Shown here piece after piece: positions 3,789-30,578 of a DNA stretch of 64,000 bases. This stretch comes from Patescibacteria group bacterium (lineage in GTDB: Bacteria; Patescibacteriota; Minisyncoccia; Phycocordibacterales; JACOZG01): NCBI GenBank assembly GCA_038065495.1, contig JBBTQW010000001.1:44137-108136 (forward strand), read 5' to 3'. The first letter of the stretch is position 1. The number at the start of each line of letters is the position of its first letter. Position numbers and translations under genes: made by a program. The notes under the pieces were generated by a model. It was not told the DNA's origin and searched no databases. It saw only the letters and a list, made by a program, of their open reading frames with translations.

Positions 3789-4613
3789 CTACTCTATCTC
3801 GTAACGCAAGGTCACAGACACACGCACTTCTTGCGAACCGGGCTGGATGCTTGGCGCTGGAGCGGCCGCCATACCAAGATCGCGACTCGCCTCCATGCTA
3901 TAAATTTTGGTCATTGGATAATCCATACCACCTTCGTCGATACCCAATAATTCTCCAAGCGAGAAACCGGCCGCTTTGGCAATTGACTTAGCCTTAACCT
4001 TGGCCTCCGCAATGGCTTGAGCGCGAGCTTCGTTCTCGGCTGTCACTGGATCATCAATCGTAAAGTCGAGTTGCGAGACCGAGTTAGCGCCTTGTTTGAT
4101 TACACCCGAGAGCGCCTCGCCGATTTTACTAAAATTATCTTGGCGCACTTTCACCGAAACTGTCTGACTAATGGAGTAGCCAACGATCTCTGGCGGCGGA
4201 CAAGTCTGATTGAAACCGTCTGGACGAAAACCGCAATTGGCCGTCTCATAGCGCGGTGAGAGATTGTAACTCTCGGTCTTAATATCTTTCTCATCTAGCC
4301 CCTGATCTTTTAAGAATTTGATGGCTTTATTAACTTTCTCAGTATTGCTTGTCTGCAGTTTGCTAATATCGGTATCGCCCTCGGTGATTACGCTAAACGT
4401 GAACTTAGCGACGTCTGGCACCACCACCACCTTGCCCTCACCACTAGCCGAGAAGCTGCGGAAAGAGGCTGGCTGGATGGAACGCGCATAAGCGCTCACA
4501 TAACGCCAAGCGGAAAAAGCCACTAATAAAATGCTAATAATCAAAACCCAGCCCAAATAATTCTTTAATTTTTCAGTCATGTTCCACATTATAGCTTTTT
4601 TACTTCTAAACAC
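3789..4613 (-). CDS. SIMPL/DUF541-family periplasmic protein (YggE-like), N-terminal TM anchor
   Basis: 274-aa ORF. An N-terminal hydrophobic segment is followed by a SIMPL-like region (...SISQTVSVKVRQ...IAEAKVKAKSIAKAAGFSLGELLGIDEGG...). The start is ambiguous between 4613, 4589 and 4580. Confidence 0.75.
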   Translation of the reverse strand: MFRSKKAIMWNMTEKLKNYLGWVLIISILLVAFSAWRYVSAYARSIQPASFRSFSASGEGKVVVVPDVAKFTFSVITEGDTDISKLQTSNTEKVNKAIKFLKDQGLDEKDIKTESYNLSPRYETANCGFRPDGFNQTCPPPEIVGYSISQTVSVKVRQDNFSKIGEALSGVIKQGANSVSQLDFTIDDPVTAENEARAQAIAEAKVKAKSIAKAAGFSLGELLGIDEGGMDYPMTKIYSMEASRDLGMAAAPAPSIQPGSQEVRVSVTLRYEIE

Positions 4614-26600: not shown

Positions 26601-27467
26601 ATGAGCACAATCAAGCGCTTATCCCCAAGCCAGTTTCCGTCACTTCTGCGCGAAATTAATGACCCGCCGAAAGAGCTATATTTAGAAGGCAAATTGCCGG
26701 ACGCCAGTTTTATTTATCTCACGATCGTTGGCTCGCGCAAATATTCTAGTTACGGCCGAGAAGCTTGTGAGAAAGTTATTGCCGAACTAGCTGGCTATCC
26801 CGTCGCGATTATTTCTGGCTTGGCGGTGGGAATAGACACGATTGCGCATCAAGCAGCACTCCAAGCTGGCTTGCCCACCGTGGCGATCCCGGGTTCGGGC
26901 TTGGGCCGGAATGTGCTCCATCCCAGTTCTAATAAAAAACTCGCTGATGAAATCATAGAAGCCGGTGGCGCGCTCTTGAGTGAATTCCCGCCCGATTATC
27001 CAGCTGGCTTACACACTTTCCCACGCCGAAATAGAATCATGGCTGGCCTCGCGAAAGCTGTGCTGATAGTAGAAGCCGGCGACAAAAGTGGCACGCTGAT
27101 CACAGCGAAATTAGCAACAGATTATAATCGCGACGTCCTCGCCATCCCGGGCTCAATCTTCTCAGCCGGCTCGCTGGGCACGAATAATTTGATCAAGCTT
27201 GGCGCGACGCCGGTTTGCTCGGGTCGTGATTTGCTGATTGGTTTGGGTTTTGACTTACCTGACGAATATGGCCAGCAGAAATTAAATTTAGAGAGTTTAA
27301 CTAAATCAGAACAGAAAGTTTATGAAATCCTAAAGATCGAACCCCTCCCGCGCGACGAATTGATCCGGAATCTCAATCTGCCAATTAGTGAAGCAAATGT
27401 GCTACTAGCGATGATGGAAATTAAGGGAATTATCAAAGAGATGATGGGAGAATTACGGGTGGGGTGA
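26601..27467 (+). CDS. dprA: DNA processing protein DprA (Smf)
   Basis: 288 aa with the Rossmann-like DprA core (VGSRKYSSYGREA..., GLAVGIDTIAHQAALQAG..., GSLITAKLA). Confidence 0.85.
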   Translation: MSTIKRLSPSQFPSLLREINDPPKELYLEGKLPDASFIYLTIVGSRKYSSYGREACEKVIAELAGYPVAIISGLAVGIDTIAHQAALQAGLPTVAIPGSGLGRNVLHPSSNKKLADEIIEAGGALLSEFPPDYPAGLHTFPRRNRIMAGLAKAVLIVEAGDKSGTLITAKLATDYNRDVLAIPGSIFSAGSLGTNNLIKLGATPVCSGRDLLIGLGFDLPDEYGQQKLNLESLTKSEQKVYEILKIEPLPRDELIRNLNLPISEANVLLAMMEIKGIIKEMMGELRVG

Positions 27468-27472
27468 GAAAT

Positions 27473-27506
27473 AAAAAAACCCCGCACCATTTCTGGTTTG
27501 GGGTCT
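27473..27506 (-). terminator. Rho-independent terminator for gene 27539..27838 (hairpin plus T-run on minus strand)
   Basis: Plus strand reads aaaaaaACCCCGCACCatttctGGTTTGGGGT. Confidence 0.5.
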
Positions 27507-27538: not shown

Positions 27539-27838
27539 CTAAGCTGGCCAATCCCTGCTGTATGGAGTGGTCATGATCCGCATTGTCTCCCGAGGATCTC
27601 TGGAGAGAATGTGATGACAGGACCGATCATCCAAGAAACCAAACTTGTGGTAGTCTCCCAAGACCATTTGGTCAACCTCGGAGTAGAATGCAAGCGCGCT
27701 GGCGGCAACTTTTTTCAGAACATGTTCGATTCTTGTGCCATCGGGCAGATCGAGCACCTGCATTCTGGGGAAATCGTCCTCCTTAGTAACAACGCCATCA
27801 CCGATGTAAAGGGGGCGATAAACCAATTTAACCTTCAT
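27539..27838 (-). CDS. small hypothetical protein A (99 aa) expressed from consensus promoter P3
   Basis: Strong SD (GGAAGGAGAAAATCC-ATG), promoter P3 upstream and a terminator downstream. The antisense track ORF 27464..27904 is rejected. Confidence 0.6.
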   Translation of the reverse strand: MKVKLVYRPLYIGDGVVTKEDDFPRMQVLDLPDGTRIEHVLKKVAASALAFYSEVDQMVLGDYHKFGFLDDRSCHHILSRDPRETMRIMTTPYSRDWPA

Positions 27839-27917
27839 GGATTTTCTCCTTCCGGCCTTTTGGGGCCAAAAATAAGGTTATTTCTTGTCAAAGTGCTACG
27901 ATAGCACCTCAACCCCC

Positions 27918-27946
27918 AGTATAGCAAATTGCGGTTTATTTGTCAA
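27918..27946 (-). promoter_or_regulatory. sigma70 consensus promoter module P3 (TTGACA-17-TATACT, then GGGGGTTGAGG)
   Basis: Reverse complement reads ttgacaaataaaccgcaatttgcTATACTgggggttgagg. Confidence 0.65.
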
Positions 27947-27966
27947 GTATTATAACTCACCCCCAG

Positions 27967-27993
27967 CCCCCTCTCTTAATTTAAGAGAGGGGG
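27967..27993. promoter_or_regulatory. 27-bp perfect palindrome (CCCCCTCTCTTAA-T-TTAAGAGAGGGGG) between divergent promoters; candidate operator
   Basis: Self-complementary 13+1+13 nt, centred between the -35 of P3 (minus) and a plus-strand TTGACA-16-TAAACT element at 28009-28036. No T-run on either side, so unlikely to be a terminator. Confidence 0.5.
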
Positions 27994-28042
27994 CGAGATG
28001 TTAGAAATTTGACAAAAAAGTAGCTCATGCTAAACTTTCCCA

Positions 28043-28256
28043 AGTTCACACCAGCTGGTAGTCCCTTGACCCCGACGCGTCCGCCGATAACCGCAAGCTT
28101 GGTTTCGGCGTCCGAGGCGACCCGTAGCGTTCGGGAGCCGGCCACGAAAAGTGGTTGGCTCGAGCCCGAGAAAATATCGGATACGTCGGGAAGCATTTTG
28201 GGGATTTCCGTGAACACAGTTTGCATTGGTACTCACTGATGCAAACTGTTTTTTTA
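28043..28256 (+). ncRNA. candidate structured small RNA or topA leader (about 210 nt, GC-rich) ending in a canonical terminator
   Basis: A plus-strand promoter-like TTGACA-16-TAAACT lies at 28009-28036. The GC-rich segment has several hairpins (CCGA...TCGG, GGCCAC-GAAAA-GTGGTT) and ends with ACAGTTTGCAT...ATGCAAACTGT plus T7 at 28215-28256. The overlapping track ORFs are low-complexity and lack an RBS. Confidence 0.35.
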
Positions 28257-28314
28257 TTTCTCACAAATTTGCAACTTGTTAACAATCTGTGCTACTAATG
28301 TAACTTAAGATGAT

Positions 28315-28391
28315 CCCGTTAGAAGTAACTCTTTCTACTTTCGTAACGGAAAAACAAAATTAAAAATTAATATTCTTAAACTTCTAACGGG
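28315..28391 (+). promoter_or_regulatory. 12-bp perfect inverted repeat (CCCGTTAGAAGT ... ACTTCTAACGGG) in the topA 5' leader; the right arm abuts the ATG
   Basis: Left arm 28315-28326, right arm 28380-28391, with the topA ATG at 28392. Could sequester the translation initiation region. Confidence 0.4.
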
Positions 28392-30578
28392 ATGAAATTA
28401 CTGATTGTCGAGTCGCCGGCGAAAGCGAAAACGATTGCCAAATATCTGGATGGCGAGTACACCGTGCGCGCGAGCGTCGGGCATATTCGTGATCTGCCGA
28501 AGAGTAATAAAAACGCGATTGATATCGAGGCCGGCTTCGTGCCGAATTATGTGATTAGTCCAGGGAAAGAAAAAGTGGTGAGTGAATTGAAAAGCTTGGC
28601 CAAGAAGGCTGAGAAAACGGTGCTCGCGACAGATCCGGACCGTGAAGGTGAAGCAATCGCTTGGCACATTAAGGAAGCACTGGGCTTGAAGAATCCGGAC
28701 AGAATCGTGTTCCATGAGATTACGAAAGAAGCCGTGCAAGAAGCGGCCGAACATCCAAGAAAAATTGATGAAAATTTAAGATCAGCGCAAGAGGCGCGAC
28801 GCGTGCTCGACAGACTATTTGGTTATGACTTGTCTGGTTTGATCTGGCAGAAGTTGCGCTACGGTTTATCAGCTGGCCGCGTGCAGTCCCCCGCGCTAAG
28901 AATCTTGGTGGAACGCGAACGCGAGATTAAAGCGTTTATTCCGGAAAAATTCTGGGTGCTGGAAGCGCTGTTGGCTACTAAAGAAAAAAAAGAAATCTTG
29001 TTTACTTGCGTAGAAGAGCCGAAGACGCAAGAAAGCGCTGACGAGATTGTGAATCTAGCGAAAAAATCAGACTGGCAAGTGGCGAGCGTCAAACAAACGC
29101 CAACGAAACGCTCGCCGCGCGCACCGTTTACGACATCAACGCTCCAGCAAGCGGCTTCTTCTCGTCTCGGCTACTCACCGTCTATCACAATGCGACTGGC
29201 GCAGAAGCTGTATGAAGCCGGTCACATCACTTACATGCGCACGGACAGCACTAATCTATCCCAACAAGCGCTGGCTGAAATTGCTGGTTTGGTGGAAACA
29301 CAATTTGGTCAGAAATATTTGCAAGTCAGAAAGTATGCGACTAAATCGAAGAACGCGCAGGAAGCGCATGAGGCGATCCGGCCATCTCACGCAAGTAATC
29401 TGAATGCTGGCAATTCGCCGCAAGAGCAGAAACTTTACAAATTAATCTGGTCACGCGCGGTGGCGAGTCAGATGAAAGACGCTGAGATGCTGAAAACAGA
29501 AATTATTGCGCAAGCTCGCCCCGCCAATGGCGGGGCAGGTGAGAAAAAAGTTCCTGATTTTAAAACTTTGGGATCAGTCATCACTTTCGACGGCTGGCTC
29601 AAAGCTGACCCGGCCGCGCGCGGCGAAGACGTGGAATTGCCAAAAATTTCTGACGGCGAAAAGCTTGATCTCAAAAATATCAACGCGCTTGGTAAAGAAA
29701 CGCAACCGCCGAAGAGATATAGTGAAGCTGGCCTCGTGAAAGAATTGGAAAAGCGCGGGATTGGCCGACCGAGCACTTATGCGCCCACCATCAAGACGAT
29801 TATTGATCGCGGTTATGTGGAAAAGGTGGAACGCAGTCTCAAGCCGACAGAAACGGGCGAAGTGGTGAGTAGCTTTTTGGAAGAAAATTTTGCCAGCTAT
29901 ATCAGCGACGACTTCACTCGCGAGATGGAAGATAAGCTGGACTTGATCGCGACTGGCGAACATGAGTATGTGAAGACGCTGAAAGATTTCTACGGCCCCT
30001 TCAAGAAAGAAATCGCGTCGAAGAAAAAATTGCCGAAAATTACTAATCTTGGGGCTGCGCCGGCTGATCTGCTCTGCCCGGTCTGTGGTAGCGCAATGAT
30101 TATCAAACTCAGTCGCTCTGGCAAATTTTATTCTTGTTCACGATTCCCAGACTGCGTGGGAGCGCGCAAGATGGACGGGAATGTGATGGAAGGGCCGAAA
30201 GAAACGGGCGAGCTCTGCCCAGACTGCAAAGACGGCAAATTGATCGAGCGCGAAGGTAAATTTGGTAAGTTTATTGCTTGCAGTAATTATCCGAAGTGCA
30301 AATTTATCAAAAAAGATCCAAGCCAAGAAGCAGCCGGCGATACTGGCGTAACTTGCACAGTTTGTAAGAAAGGCACGATGCGCGAGAAGCGCGGGAGATT
30401 TGGCATATTCTATGGTTGCTCAAATTATCCGGACTGCAAAAATATTATTAAAACCAAACCAACTGGCAAGATCTGCGAGATGTGTGGCGCGCTAATGATG
30501 GCGGGGACGAAAACGATTCCGGACAGATGCTCGAACAAAGCCTGCGCCAATCACAATCCGCACAAGCTGATGAAATAA
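28392..30578 (+). CDS. topA: DNA topoisomerase I with C-terminal zinc-ribbon repeats
   Basis: 728 aa with MKLLIVESPAKAKTIAKYLDGEYTVRASVGHIRDLP (Toprim), active-site Tyr region (HITYMRTDS) and three C4 zinc ribbons near the C-terminus. Confidence 0.95.
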   Translation: MKLLIVESPAKAKTIAKYLDGEYTVRASVGHIRDLPKSNKNAIDIEAGFVPNYVISPGKEKVVSELKSLAKKAEKTVLATDPDREGEAIAWHIKEALGLKNPDRIVFHEITKEAVQEAAEHPRKIDENLRSAQEARRVLDRLFGYDLSGLIWQKLRYGLSAGRVQSPALRILVEREREIKAFIPEKFWVLEALLATKEKKEILFTCVEEPKTQESADEIVNLAKKSDWQVASVKQTPTKRSPRAPFTTSTLQQAASSRLGYSPSITMRLAQKLYEAGHITYMRTDSTNLSQQALAEIAGLVETQFGQKYLQVRKYATKSKNAQEAHEAIRPSHASNLNAGNSPQEQKLYKLIWSRAVASQMKDAEMLKTEIIAQARPANGGAGEKKVPDFKTLGSVITFDGWLKADPAARGEDVELPKISDGEKLDLKNINALGKETQPPKRYSEAGLVKELEKRGIGRPSTYAPTIKTIIDRGYVEKVERSLKPTETGEVVSSFLEENFASYISDDFTREMEDKLDLIATGEHEYVKTLKDFYGPFKKEIASKKKLPKITNLGAAPADLLCPVCGSAMIIKLSRSGKFYSCSRFPDCVGARKMDGNVMEGPKETGELCPDCKDGKLIEREGKFGKFIACSNYPKCKFIKKDPSQEAAGDTGVTCTVCKKGTMREKRGRFGIFYGCSNYPDCKNIIKTKPTGKICEMCGALMMAGTKTIPDRCSNKACANHNPHKLMK

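Follow-up and report, generated by a model that had tools for sequence, protein, structure and literature searches.

Must a long perfect palindrome between two divergent promoters be the operator of a dimeric repressor? The question is raised by the spacer between dprA and topA in a 64-kb stretch of contig JBBTQW010000001.1 (hereafter the window, by which the whole analysed stretch is meant), which belongs to a metagenome-assembled genome (MAG) of a Paceibacteria-type member of the Patescibacteria. The gene order at this locus is serS (minus strand), a 107-aa open reading frame (ORF; minus strand), dprA (26601-27467, plus strand), a small gene here called gene A (27539-27838, minus strand) and topA (28392-30578, plus strand), and the same region is present in MAG GCA_964356885.1 (contig CAYHIU010000001.1) and, as an independent assembly, in data from ERR3858121. 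A first-pass annotation of the window proposed that the palindrome controls two divergent transcripts, namely that of gene A and a GC-rich structured RNA encoded ahead of topA. Comparison with 80 genomes that contain a TopA relative, supplemented by the closest relatives found via DprA (93, 91, 84, 79, 76 and 75% identity), leads to another view: the dprA-topA spacer is probably a rearrangement-prone region that carries a triplex-type repeat and an orphan RNA unit, and not a regulated divergent operon. Comparison loci from these related genomes and contigs are referred to below by L numbers.

The palindrome and its tail

The palindrome CCCCCTCTCTTAA-T-TTAAGAGAGGGGG at 27967-27993 is real, and one further G-C pair extends it to 14+1+14 nt at 27966-27994. 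It occurs once in the window, no T-run adjoins it, as had been noted, and as single-stranded DNA it folds with -14.7 kcal/mol (z = -6.1). Read on the minus strand, it has a stem of 13-14 bp and a loop of 1-3 nt, and its 5' arm consists of pyrimidines except for a terminal G and the loop-proximal AA. Two nucleotides past the hairpin on the same strand there is a conserved tail of 12-13 nt (27952-27964, minus strand; GGGGGTGAGTTAT) that mirrors the purine arm. This tail escaped the first-pass annotation, as did three features discussed further below: the topA promoter P1, an 82-nt insertion at the topA start and a 17-nt inverted repeat.

The antiparallel code G.GC, A.AT and T.AT defines the purine, or reverse-Hoogsteen, triplex motif. 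When the tail of the window copy (GGGGGTGAGTT) is set against the purine arm read from base to loop (GGGGGAGAGAA), 11 of 11 triplets comply with this code across a 2-nt loop. In a class II intrastrand triplex motif the palindrome would thereby serve as the pyrimidine and purine arms with the loop between them, and the tail as the reverse-Hoogsteen third strand. Judged by this arrangement and by the copies described next, the palindrome with its tail is one copy of a Patescibacteria repeat, widespread among these ultra-small groundwater bacteria, of the class II purine-motif intrastrand triplex type.

A repeat family across Patescibacteria

A scan of metagenome contigs with the pattern CCCCTCTCTTA-NNN-TAAGAGAGGGG, that is, 11-bp arms around a 3-nt centre, recovered the same arms and centre on at least 118 contigs, several of which carry two or three copies. 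All of the approximately 130 copies possess the tail GGGG(T/A)GAGTTA, with T in 86% and A in 13% at the variable position, placed 2-5 nt (mode 3) from one or both sides of the hairpin, and in the family logo conservation ends sharply directly after GAGTTA(T). Two host contigs were checked and both encode proteins annotated as Patescibacteria; on 20 contigs with a homolog of a window protein the identity ranges from 27 to 67%, and contig GC runs from 30 to 57%. According to crude ORF calls, the gene context is tandem for 49 of the listed copies, convergent for 13 and divergent for 11, the orientation of the copies relative to the flanking genes is unbiased (17 versus 16), and 27 copies fall within called ORFs. 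The adjoining genes are diverse and include pth, aspS and a glycosyltransferase, among others. A scan of IMG/VR found no copy, no Rfam family corresponds to the repeat, and its sequence string was not found in the literature.

The most informative evidence on the nature of the repeat is that stem and tail change together. A search of all comparison loci for pyrimidine/purine hairpins revealed about 75 more palindromes with other stems, and their tails are altered to match: GGGGAGAGGA occurs with GGGGTGAGGT, AGAGGGAGAAT with AGAGGGAGTTA, and GGGAGGAGAA with GGGAGGAGTT, and the orthologous palindrome of L090 combines the stem AGGGGGAAT with the tail AGGGGGTTA. In the tail of the repeat every G-C pair of the stem is faced by G and every A-T pair by T or A, and tail length equals stem length. 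In counts that take no account of shared ancestry, 64 distinct arm/tail pairs covary, and all eight basal positions comply with the code in 95 of 293 hairpin strands, as against 0.027% of random flanks. When tails were scored against their own and against swapped stems, the mean fit was 0.90 to their own stem versus 0.76 to the other types, and the own stem fitted better for 28 of 35 variant stems. Covariation of stem and tail in a new family that is so widely shared provides independent comparative support for the triplet code.

Other identities were considered for the repeat and its tail and were rejected. The absence from IMG/VR and from Rfam gives no footing to a phage or mobile-element sequence. 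A Shine-Dalgarno sequence with start codon is not a credible role for the tail, as GGGGTGAGTTATG is found in only about 8% of copies, which is the chance level, and orientation is unbiased; nor is the tail a -10 box, since TATAAT is not kept after GAGTTA. For a DNA uptake sequence the density, at one copy in 64 kb, is far too low.

Several copies have peculiarities of their own. At L213 (1166-1303) three copies of repeat plus tail follow each other head-to-tail with a period of 51 nt. In L201 (MEK7669333.1) and L115 (MEK7155057.1) annotated ORFs contain a repeat internally or terminally and run through it in frame, giving 'PPLILRGG' within the protein and 'ITHPRPLS*' at a C-terminus; such read-through copies resemble the in-frame palindromic elements of Rickettsia. 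Orthologous two-tailed copies stand upstream of pth in two different genomes (L098, about 4130-4230, and L125, about 190-290), where conservation is higher in the repeat than in the coding sequence next to it; each copy includes an extra small hairpin with compensatory stem changes (GGC-CACA-GCC versus GCC-CGAA-GGC).

Relation to known triplex repeats

Class II intrastrand triplex motifs of E. coli and other bacteria came to notice as BoxC, were later named PIT elements, and have been studied in E. coli under the name TMECO by Holder et al. (2015, PMC4666352), who also review the earlier work of the Maher laboratory on PIT elements. In the definition given there, a pyrimidine-rich 5' block and a purine-rich block form a Watson-Crick hairpin with a stem of 6-15 nt and a loop of 1-6 nt, a third block then stands 3' of the purine arm across a short loop and antiparallel to it, with G facing G-C and A or T facing A-T, and TMECO follows the pattern CCCTCNCCC-N3-6-GGGNGAGGG-N3-GGGNGAGGG (PMC4666352). 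TMECO copies are intergenic, show neither strand bias nor a tie to gene function, have loops that are less conserved than their stems, and in some cases form inverted pairs; the loci that hold them are significantly more rearranged between strains (PMC4666352). The motif forms a triplex in vitro, and E. coli PIT elements reportedly showed no promoter or terminator activity (PMC4666352). Moreover, purine-motif triplexes are stated not to form in RNA (PMC4666352), which fits the lack of orientation bias in the Patescibacteria repeat.

The Patescibacteria repeat is, by its block structure, a new sequence family within this known architecture. It shares with BoxC, PIT and TMECO the three blocks on one strand (a C/T-rich arm joined by a short loop to a G/A-rich arm, which a second loop of about 3 nt separates from a G-rich block in mirror register), stems of 9-13 nt, less conserved loops, and a multi-copy intergenic distribution that has no orientation bias and no tie to the function of neighbouring genes. 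Some copies likewise form inverted pairs, and the loci are unusually variable between close relatives. The differences lie in the sequence, which is CCCCTCTCTTA / TAAGAGAGGGG / GGGGTGAGTTA here and CCCTCNCCC / GGGNGAGGG / GGGNGAGGG in E. coli, in a greater number of A-T triplets, in a tail that always ends in TTA(T), and in the hosts, very divergent members of which have the same 25-mer in common; in addition, some copies are read in frame in ORFs. Finally, triplex formation has been shown in vitro for TMECO and is predicted for the Patescibacteria family. Intrastrand triplex repeats, described mainly in Proteobacteria and Cyanobacteria, would with this family be extended to the Candidate Phyla Radiation.

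Short intergenic palindromes in many copies, in both orientations and sometimes in inverted pairs, are also characteristic of REP elements and BIMEs. The repeat differs from REP/BIME sequences associated with RAYT transposases in that its arms are strictly pyrimidine and purine and perfectly complementary and in that it has a mirror tail. Its logo has no conserved GTAG head, which speaks against membership in the REP/RAYT group, and no RAYT gene was seen, although no search was aimed at one.

Some points temper this view of the palindrome. Triplex formation would follow from the sequence code and from a published analogue, and for that analogue in vivo footprinting detected little or only transient formation (PMC4666352). 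The covariation counts, as said, ignore shared ancestry, the context statistics rest on crude ORF calls, and the window itself contains only one copy of the repeat. It is also possible that a protein binds the hairpin or the duplex and affects one or the other of the two neighbouring promoters.

The operator question

The position of the palindrome was the reason for regarding it as the operator of a dimeric repressor that controls both transcripts. It does sit between the -35 boxes of two strong divergent promoters, both of which are present as the first-pass annotation had described them: P3, which serves gene A (27918-27946, minus strand; TTGACA-17-TATACT with a TG extension), matches the consensus at 11 of 12 positions, and the promoter of the GC-rich RNA (28009-28036, plus strand; TTGACA-16-TAAACT with a TG extension) at 10 of 12. 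A promoter scan of a 2-kb stretch found 6 promoter-like sites where 2.3 were expected, and the two divergent ones were among the three best. From the coordinates, the centre of the palindrome would fall at about -63 from one predicted start and about -69 from the other, distances at which upstream activators can work. Furthermore, at L042 a second copy, CCCCTCTCTTA-CGG-TAAGAGAGGGG, with half-sites and spacing identical to those of the window, is found between divergent serS and dprA.

The distribution of the sequence speaks strongly against such a function. Operators are expected in the promoters of a regulon; this sequence recurs on the contigs counted above in every intergenic context, including convergent gaps, and even inside annotated ORFs. 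The first-pass annotation had itself named a generic repeat at unrelated sites as the outcome that would count against an operator, and a search for further copies returned exactly that. Nor do relatives keep the palindrome together with the two promoters: L094 shares P3 and its leader with the window but has no palindrome, L090 has two shorter variants, and L092 and L093 have one variant and no divergent promoter. Operators of dimeric repressors usually overlap or abut a core promoter, and this palindrome, longer than usual at 29 perfect base pairs, lies outside both, 14 and 19 bp from the two -35 hexamers, and overlaps no -35 or -10 box; between the tail and the -35 box of P3 there are 5 nt. 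A constant asymmetric tail would be superfluous at a symmetric dimer site, and arms that vary in length while keeping perfect complementarity suggest a nucleic-acid fold rather than a protein site. No cognate regulator is evident nearby, given that the predicted fold of gene A is not DNA-binding, with neither a helix-turn-helix (HTH) nor a ribbon-helix-helix (RHH), and that the other neighbours are DprA, TopA and SerS. That the palindrome co-regulates both divergent transcripts, be it as the operator for a dimeric repressor or as a site for an upstream activator, is very unlikely on this evidence.

Alternatively, the palindrome might be a relic of a terminator, or an active terminator or insulator, that shields the topA promoter from read-through out of dprA. 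In L092 and L093 the variant C7TTAATCAAG7 stands immediately between the stop codon of dprA and the promoter of topA, and in many relatives a hairpin of some kind precedes topA by 80-125 nt. Yet the palindrome lacks a T-run, in the window and in L090 it is located between divergent units where there is nothing to terminate, copies of the family occur without orientation bias and also in divergent gaps, and the PIT elements of E. coli, as mentioned, reportedly showed no terminator activity (PMC4666352). This reading is very improbable. If the palindrome is a triplex-type repeat, as favoured here, it would act, if at all, on single-stranded or supercoiled DNA, and its position between two promoters would reflect the history of the locus rather than an operator function. 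A false lead is thereby removed, and in these genomes long perfect palindromes between divergent promoters need to be checked against triplex repeats before they are called operators.

The candidate GC-rich RNA

Downstream of the plus-strand promoter, the GC-rich structured RNA has the anatomy that had been ascribed to it. The candidate structured body (28042-28216, plus strand), a GC-rich segment of 175 nt, consists of a closing helix around four hairpins, and it is followed by an intrinsic terminator (28216-28256, plus strand; terminator scan) with a 15-pair stem at 28216-28249 and a run of seven T. A distance of 136 nt separates the end of the T-run from the topA ATG at 28392. GC rises to 66% in this region, compared with about 47% nearby. 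The segment 28040-28258 (plus strand) folds with -97.8 kcal/mol (z = -6.5), the body without terminator (28042-28216) still folds with -78.6 kcal/mol (z = -4.1) and has an MFE structure identical to the centroid structure, and the minus strand of the region folds less well (z = -3.4). The closing helix is long, pairs GUUCAC (28044-28049) with GUGAAC (28209-28214), and extends from 1-2 nt past the predicted +1 to the base of the terminator.

No relative of this RNA came to light in any of the collections searched. Rfam 15 yielded no family for it at the gathering threshold or at permissive E-values, whether the whole window or the region was scanned, and ARAGORN found no tRNA or tmRNA in the region. 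There was no blastn match in phage and plasmid collections and no exact 23-mer in IMG/VR; tblastx and sensitive blastn found no match in all comparison loci; and neither nhmmer nor a single-sequence covariance model detected a homolog in 1.4 Mb of Patescibacteria DNA, which includes 94 dprA + topA loci. The element is absent from every relative examined, among them those with DprA 93, 91, 84 and 79% identical. RNAduplex predictions of pairing with the topA 5' region and with the gene A mRNA were no better than those of shuffled sequences (z = -1 to -2). An array was also considered for the region and was dismissed, as a test for tandem repeats found none.

Two further observations concern RNA-like sequence at this position. 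The GenBank MAG annotates an 81-aa ORF at 27981-28226 (minus strand) that overlaps the palindrome as well as the RNA and the RNA promoter; in a protein search it matched only itself, and it is very likely a spurious gene call. L047 has a long GC-rich, hairpin-rich stretch (about 1160-1540) between dprA and topA, with a terminator-like hairpin at its end and no Rfam match, and this may be another uncharacterised RNA in the same hotspot.

The first-pass annotation left open whether the RNA is an attenuating leader of topA or an independent small RNA (sRNA). As a cis-acting attenuator it would allow transcripts from upstream to reach topA only past the terminator at 28216-28256, adding conditional expression to that from the topA promoter P1. 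It has in common with riboswitch and attenuator leaders a helix-closed structured domain directly before an intrinsic terminator and upstream of a gene on the same strand, and, as in the expression platforms of riboswitches, the terminator stem directly adjoins the 3' strand of the closing helix. Moreover, L012 and L017 have immediately before topA a promoter very similar to the RNA promoter TTGACAAAAAAG-N7-TGCTAAACT, and the leader reading retains some weight because of this resemblance. It differs from such leaders in that the domain is not conserved upstream of topA, even in relatives with 91-93% identical DprA, matches no known aptamer or leader family, and is separated from topA by a complete, conserved promoter. 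No convincing antiterminator alternative was seen, and the terminator is a strong one. A function as attenuating leader is unlikely on balance.

The intervening promoter, P1 (28269-28299, plus strand; TTGCAA-N18-TACTAAT), lies downstream of the RNA terminator. In 32 of 87 loci, among them those of all seven closest relatives, topA is immediately preceded by a promoter of this type, TTGC[AC]A-N16-18-TAnTA[AC]T, and in most of these loci, again including the seven, the topA ATG follows the -10 box by 7-13 nt. The topA mRNA of this clade thus appears to be leaderless or nearly so. If topA is transcribed from its own P1, the GC-rich unit would not be required as its leader, and the RNA terminator would insulate topA from the upstream promoter as a side effect. 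The leader half of the earlier proposal is weakened by the presence of P1 and by the absence of the RNA in relatives.

The sRNA half agrees with the anatomy, although it gains no support from comparison. Consensus scans place a promoter, a 5' end at the predicted +1 and an intrinsic terminator in succession, so that, as in stand-alone bacterial sRNA genes, a promoter of its own, a compact fold and a terminator are all present. What sets the unit apart from such genes is that no homolog was found, no covariation is seen and no target could be identified. With these reservations, it is most likely a species-specific orphan sRNA that would be transcribed as a stable, compact RNA ending at the terminator.

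It could equally be asked whether this GC-rich segment is anything more than inert inserted DNA, a rearrangement filler or foreign fragment that came by chance to lie between a promoter and a locally assembled terminator. It is confined to this species, has no homolog anywhere searched and is atypical in GC; the final 17 nt of its terminator repeat the ancestral dprA end in inverted orientation, a mark of local rearrangement; and it lies in a hotspot locus beside a triplex-motif repeat. Against this, it folds far better than shuffled sequence even without the terminator and has a well-defined ensemble, and a closing helix that begins within 2 nt of the predicted +1 and reaches to the terminator would be unlikely in random filler. 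Inert DNA is a lesser possibility, although one with appreciable weight against the orphan sRNA preferred here.

A probably rearrangement-prone spacer

Nearly all of the 80 genomes keep dprA upstream of topA and most keep serS as well. The gap between dprA and topA, however it is filled, ranges from less than 100 nt to about 1.9 kb and contains unrelated ORFs in different genomes; scans of 18 enlarged gaps found no known RNA. Its content differs among the window, L090, L091, L092 and L094 (DprA 79-93% identical) and across the 80 genomes, in a comparison made without matched control loci. Gene A, like the RNA, is absent from every relative examined.

In the window itself there are traces of past rearrangement. 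A perfect 17-nt inverted repeat, GTGAGAAATAAAAAAAC / GTTTTTTTATTTCTCAC (27464-27480 and 28248-28264), brackets gene A, the palindrome and the RNA. The left copy corresponds to the ancestral dprA end, and the right copy forms the tail of the RNA terminator; the stems of the two terminators are unrelated. A 7-bp sequence, AAATTTG, at 28005-28011 and 28265-28271 was considered as a target duplication left by insertion of the RNA; it may only reflect similar -35 contexts, as its left copy lies in the promoter type of L012 and L017. The GC-rich unit, about 215 nt from promoter to terminator, would in effect be wedged between two promoter types, each of which would drive topA in some relatives.

The other side of the spacer offers a second example of exchange. 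P3 is followed by a conserved leader of about 70 nt (27839-27911, minus strand) with two small hairpins and the ribosome-binding site GGAAGGAG. Promoter and leader together are 83-88% conserved between the window (27839-27946, minus strand), L090 (3484-3585) and L094 (5706-5820), and in these three genomes they precede three unrelated ORFs of 99, 50 and 264 aa. To judge from this alignment, cargo is swapped behind a fixed expression platform, and P3 with its leader would carry a different small ORF in each related genome.

By analogy with TMECO, triplex-motif repeats may mark loci where neighbouring DNA is gained, lost or swapped, and the link between such repeats and plasticity would be seen here again, beside the essential gene topA. 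Shuffling within 900 bp appears to have affected not only promoters and small ORFs but also an RNA-like unit and an insertion that has terminal inverted repeats. A more far-reaching scenario is that the triplex repeats are the recombination-prone joints of a cassette-like system in which P3 and its leader gain small ORFs or RNA genes from a shared pool; alternatively or additionally, the orphan RNA might be a new structured regulator that gates a second topA promoter. This scenario is speculative and quite unlikely. If the cassette version were true, the 25-mer and its tail would be identical across hosts with about 40% identical proteins because they are the site of exchange. The orphan RNA and the conserved leader with its swapped cargo are in any case concrete targets for metatranscriptomics of groundwater Patescibacteria.

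Gene A, the topA start and other features

Gene A (99 aa) belongs to a small uncharacterised family of 92-99-aa proteins without a Pfam match, of which 11 remote homologs were found. Its structural model (pLDDT 95) is beta-grasp-like, with weak matches to ubiquitin, MoaD and TtuB-like proteins and with no HTH or RHH. Neither the palindrome nor the RNA adjoins any of the 11 homologs, and together with the predicted fold this led us to reject gene A as a regulator or partner of either element. The gene ends in a terminator (27468-27500, minus strand) composed of the hairpin CCCCAAACCA-GAAA-TGGTGCGGGG and a run of seven T, and this T-run with the next 9 nt constitutes the left copy of the 17-nt repeat.

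At the other end of the spacer, an 82-nt insertion occupies 28314-28395 (plus strand); it carries the 12-bp terminal inverted repeats CCCGTTAGAAGT / ACTTCTAACGGG and duplicates ATGA. It is located exactly at the ancestral near-leaderless topA start, and L091, whose sequence there is otherwise identical, lacks it. The ancestral ATG at 28310 now opens an upstream ORF of 17 codons, and topA starts at 28392 without a clear ribosome-binding site. A similar hairpin, CCCGTTAGAAAT...ATTTCTAATGGG, precedes topA in L036.

Within the whole window the only Rfam and ARAGORN matches are a LOOT RNA (RF03000; 54915-55035, plus strand; 89 bits) and nine tRNAs, all of them located elsewhere than the dprA-topA gap. 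In other Paceibacteria very long perfect palindromes of 44 bp lie 100-230 nt upstream of topA (L039, 2894-2937 and 2772-2795; L068, 2879-2922; L015, 2789-2832). L039 and L068 share the core AAGTTCGCCATGGCGAACTT, and these palindromes represent a different family in a comparable position.

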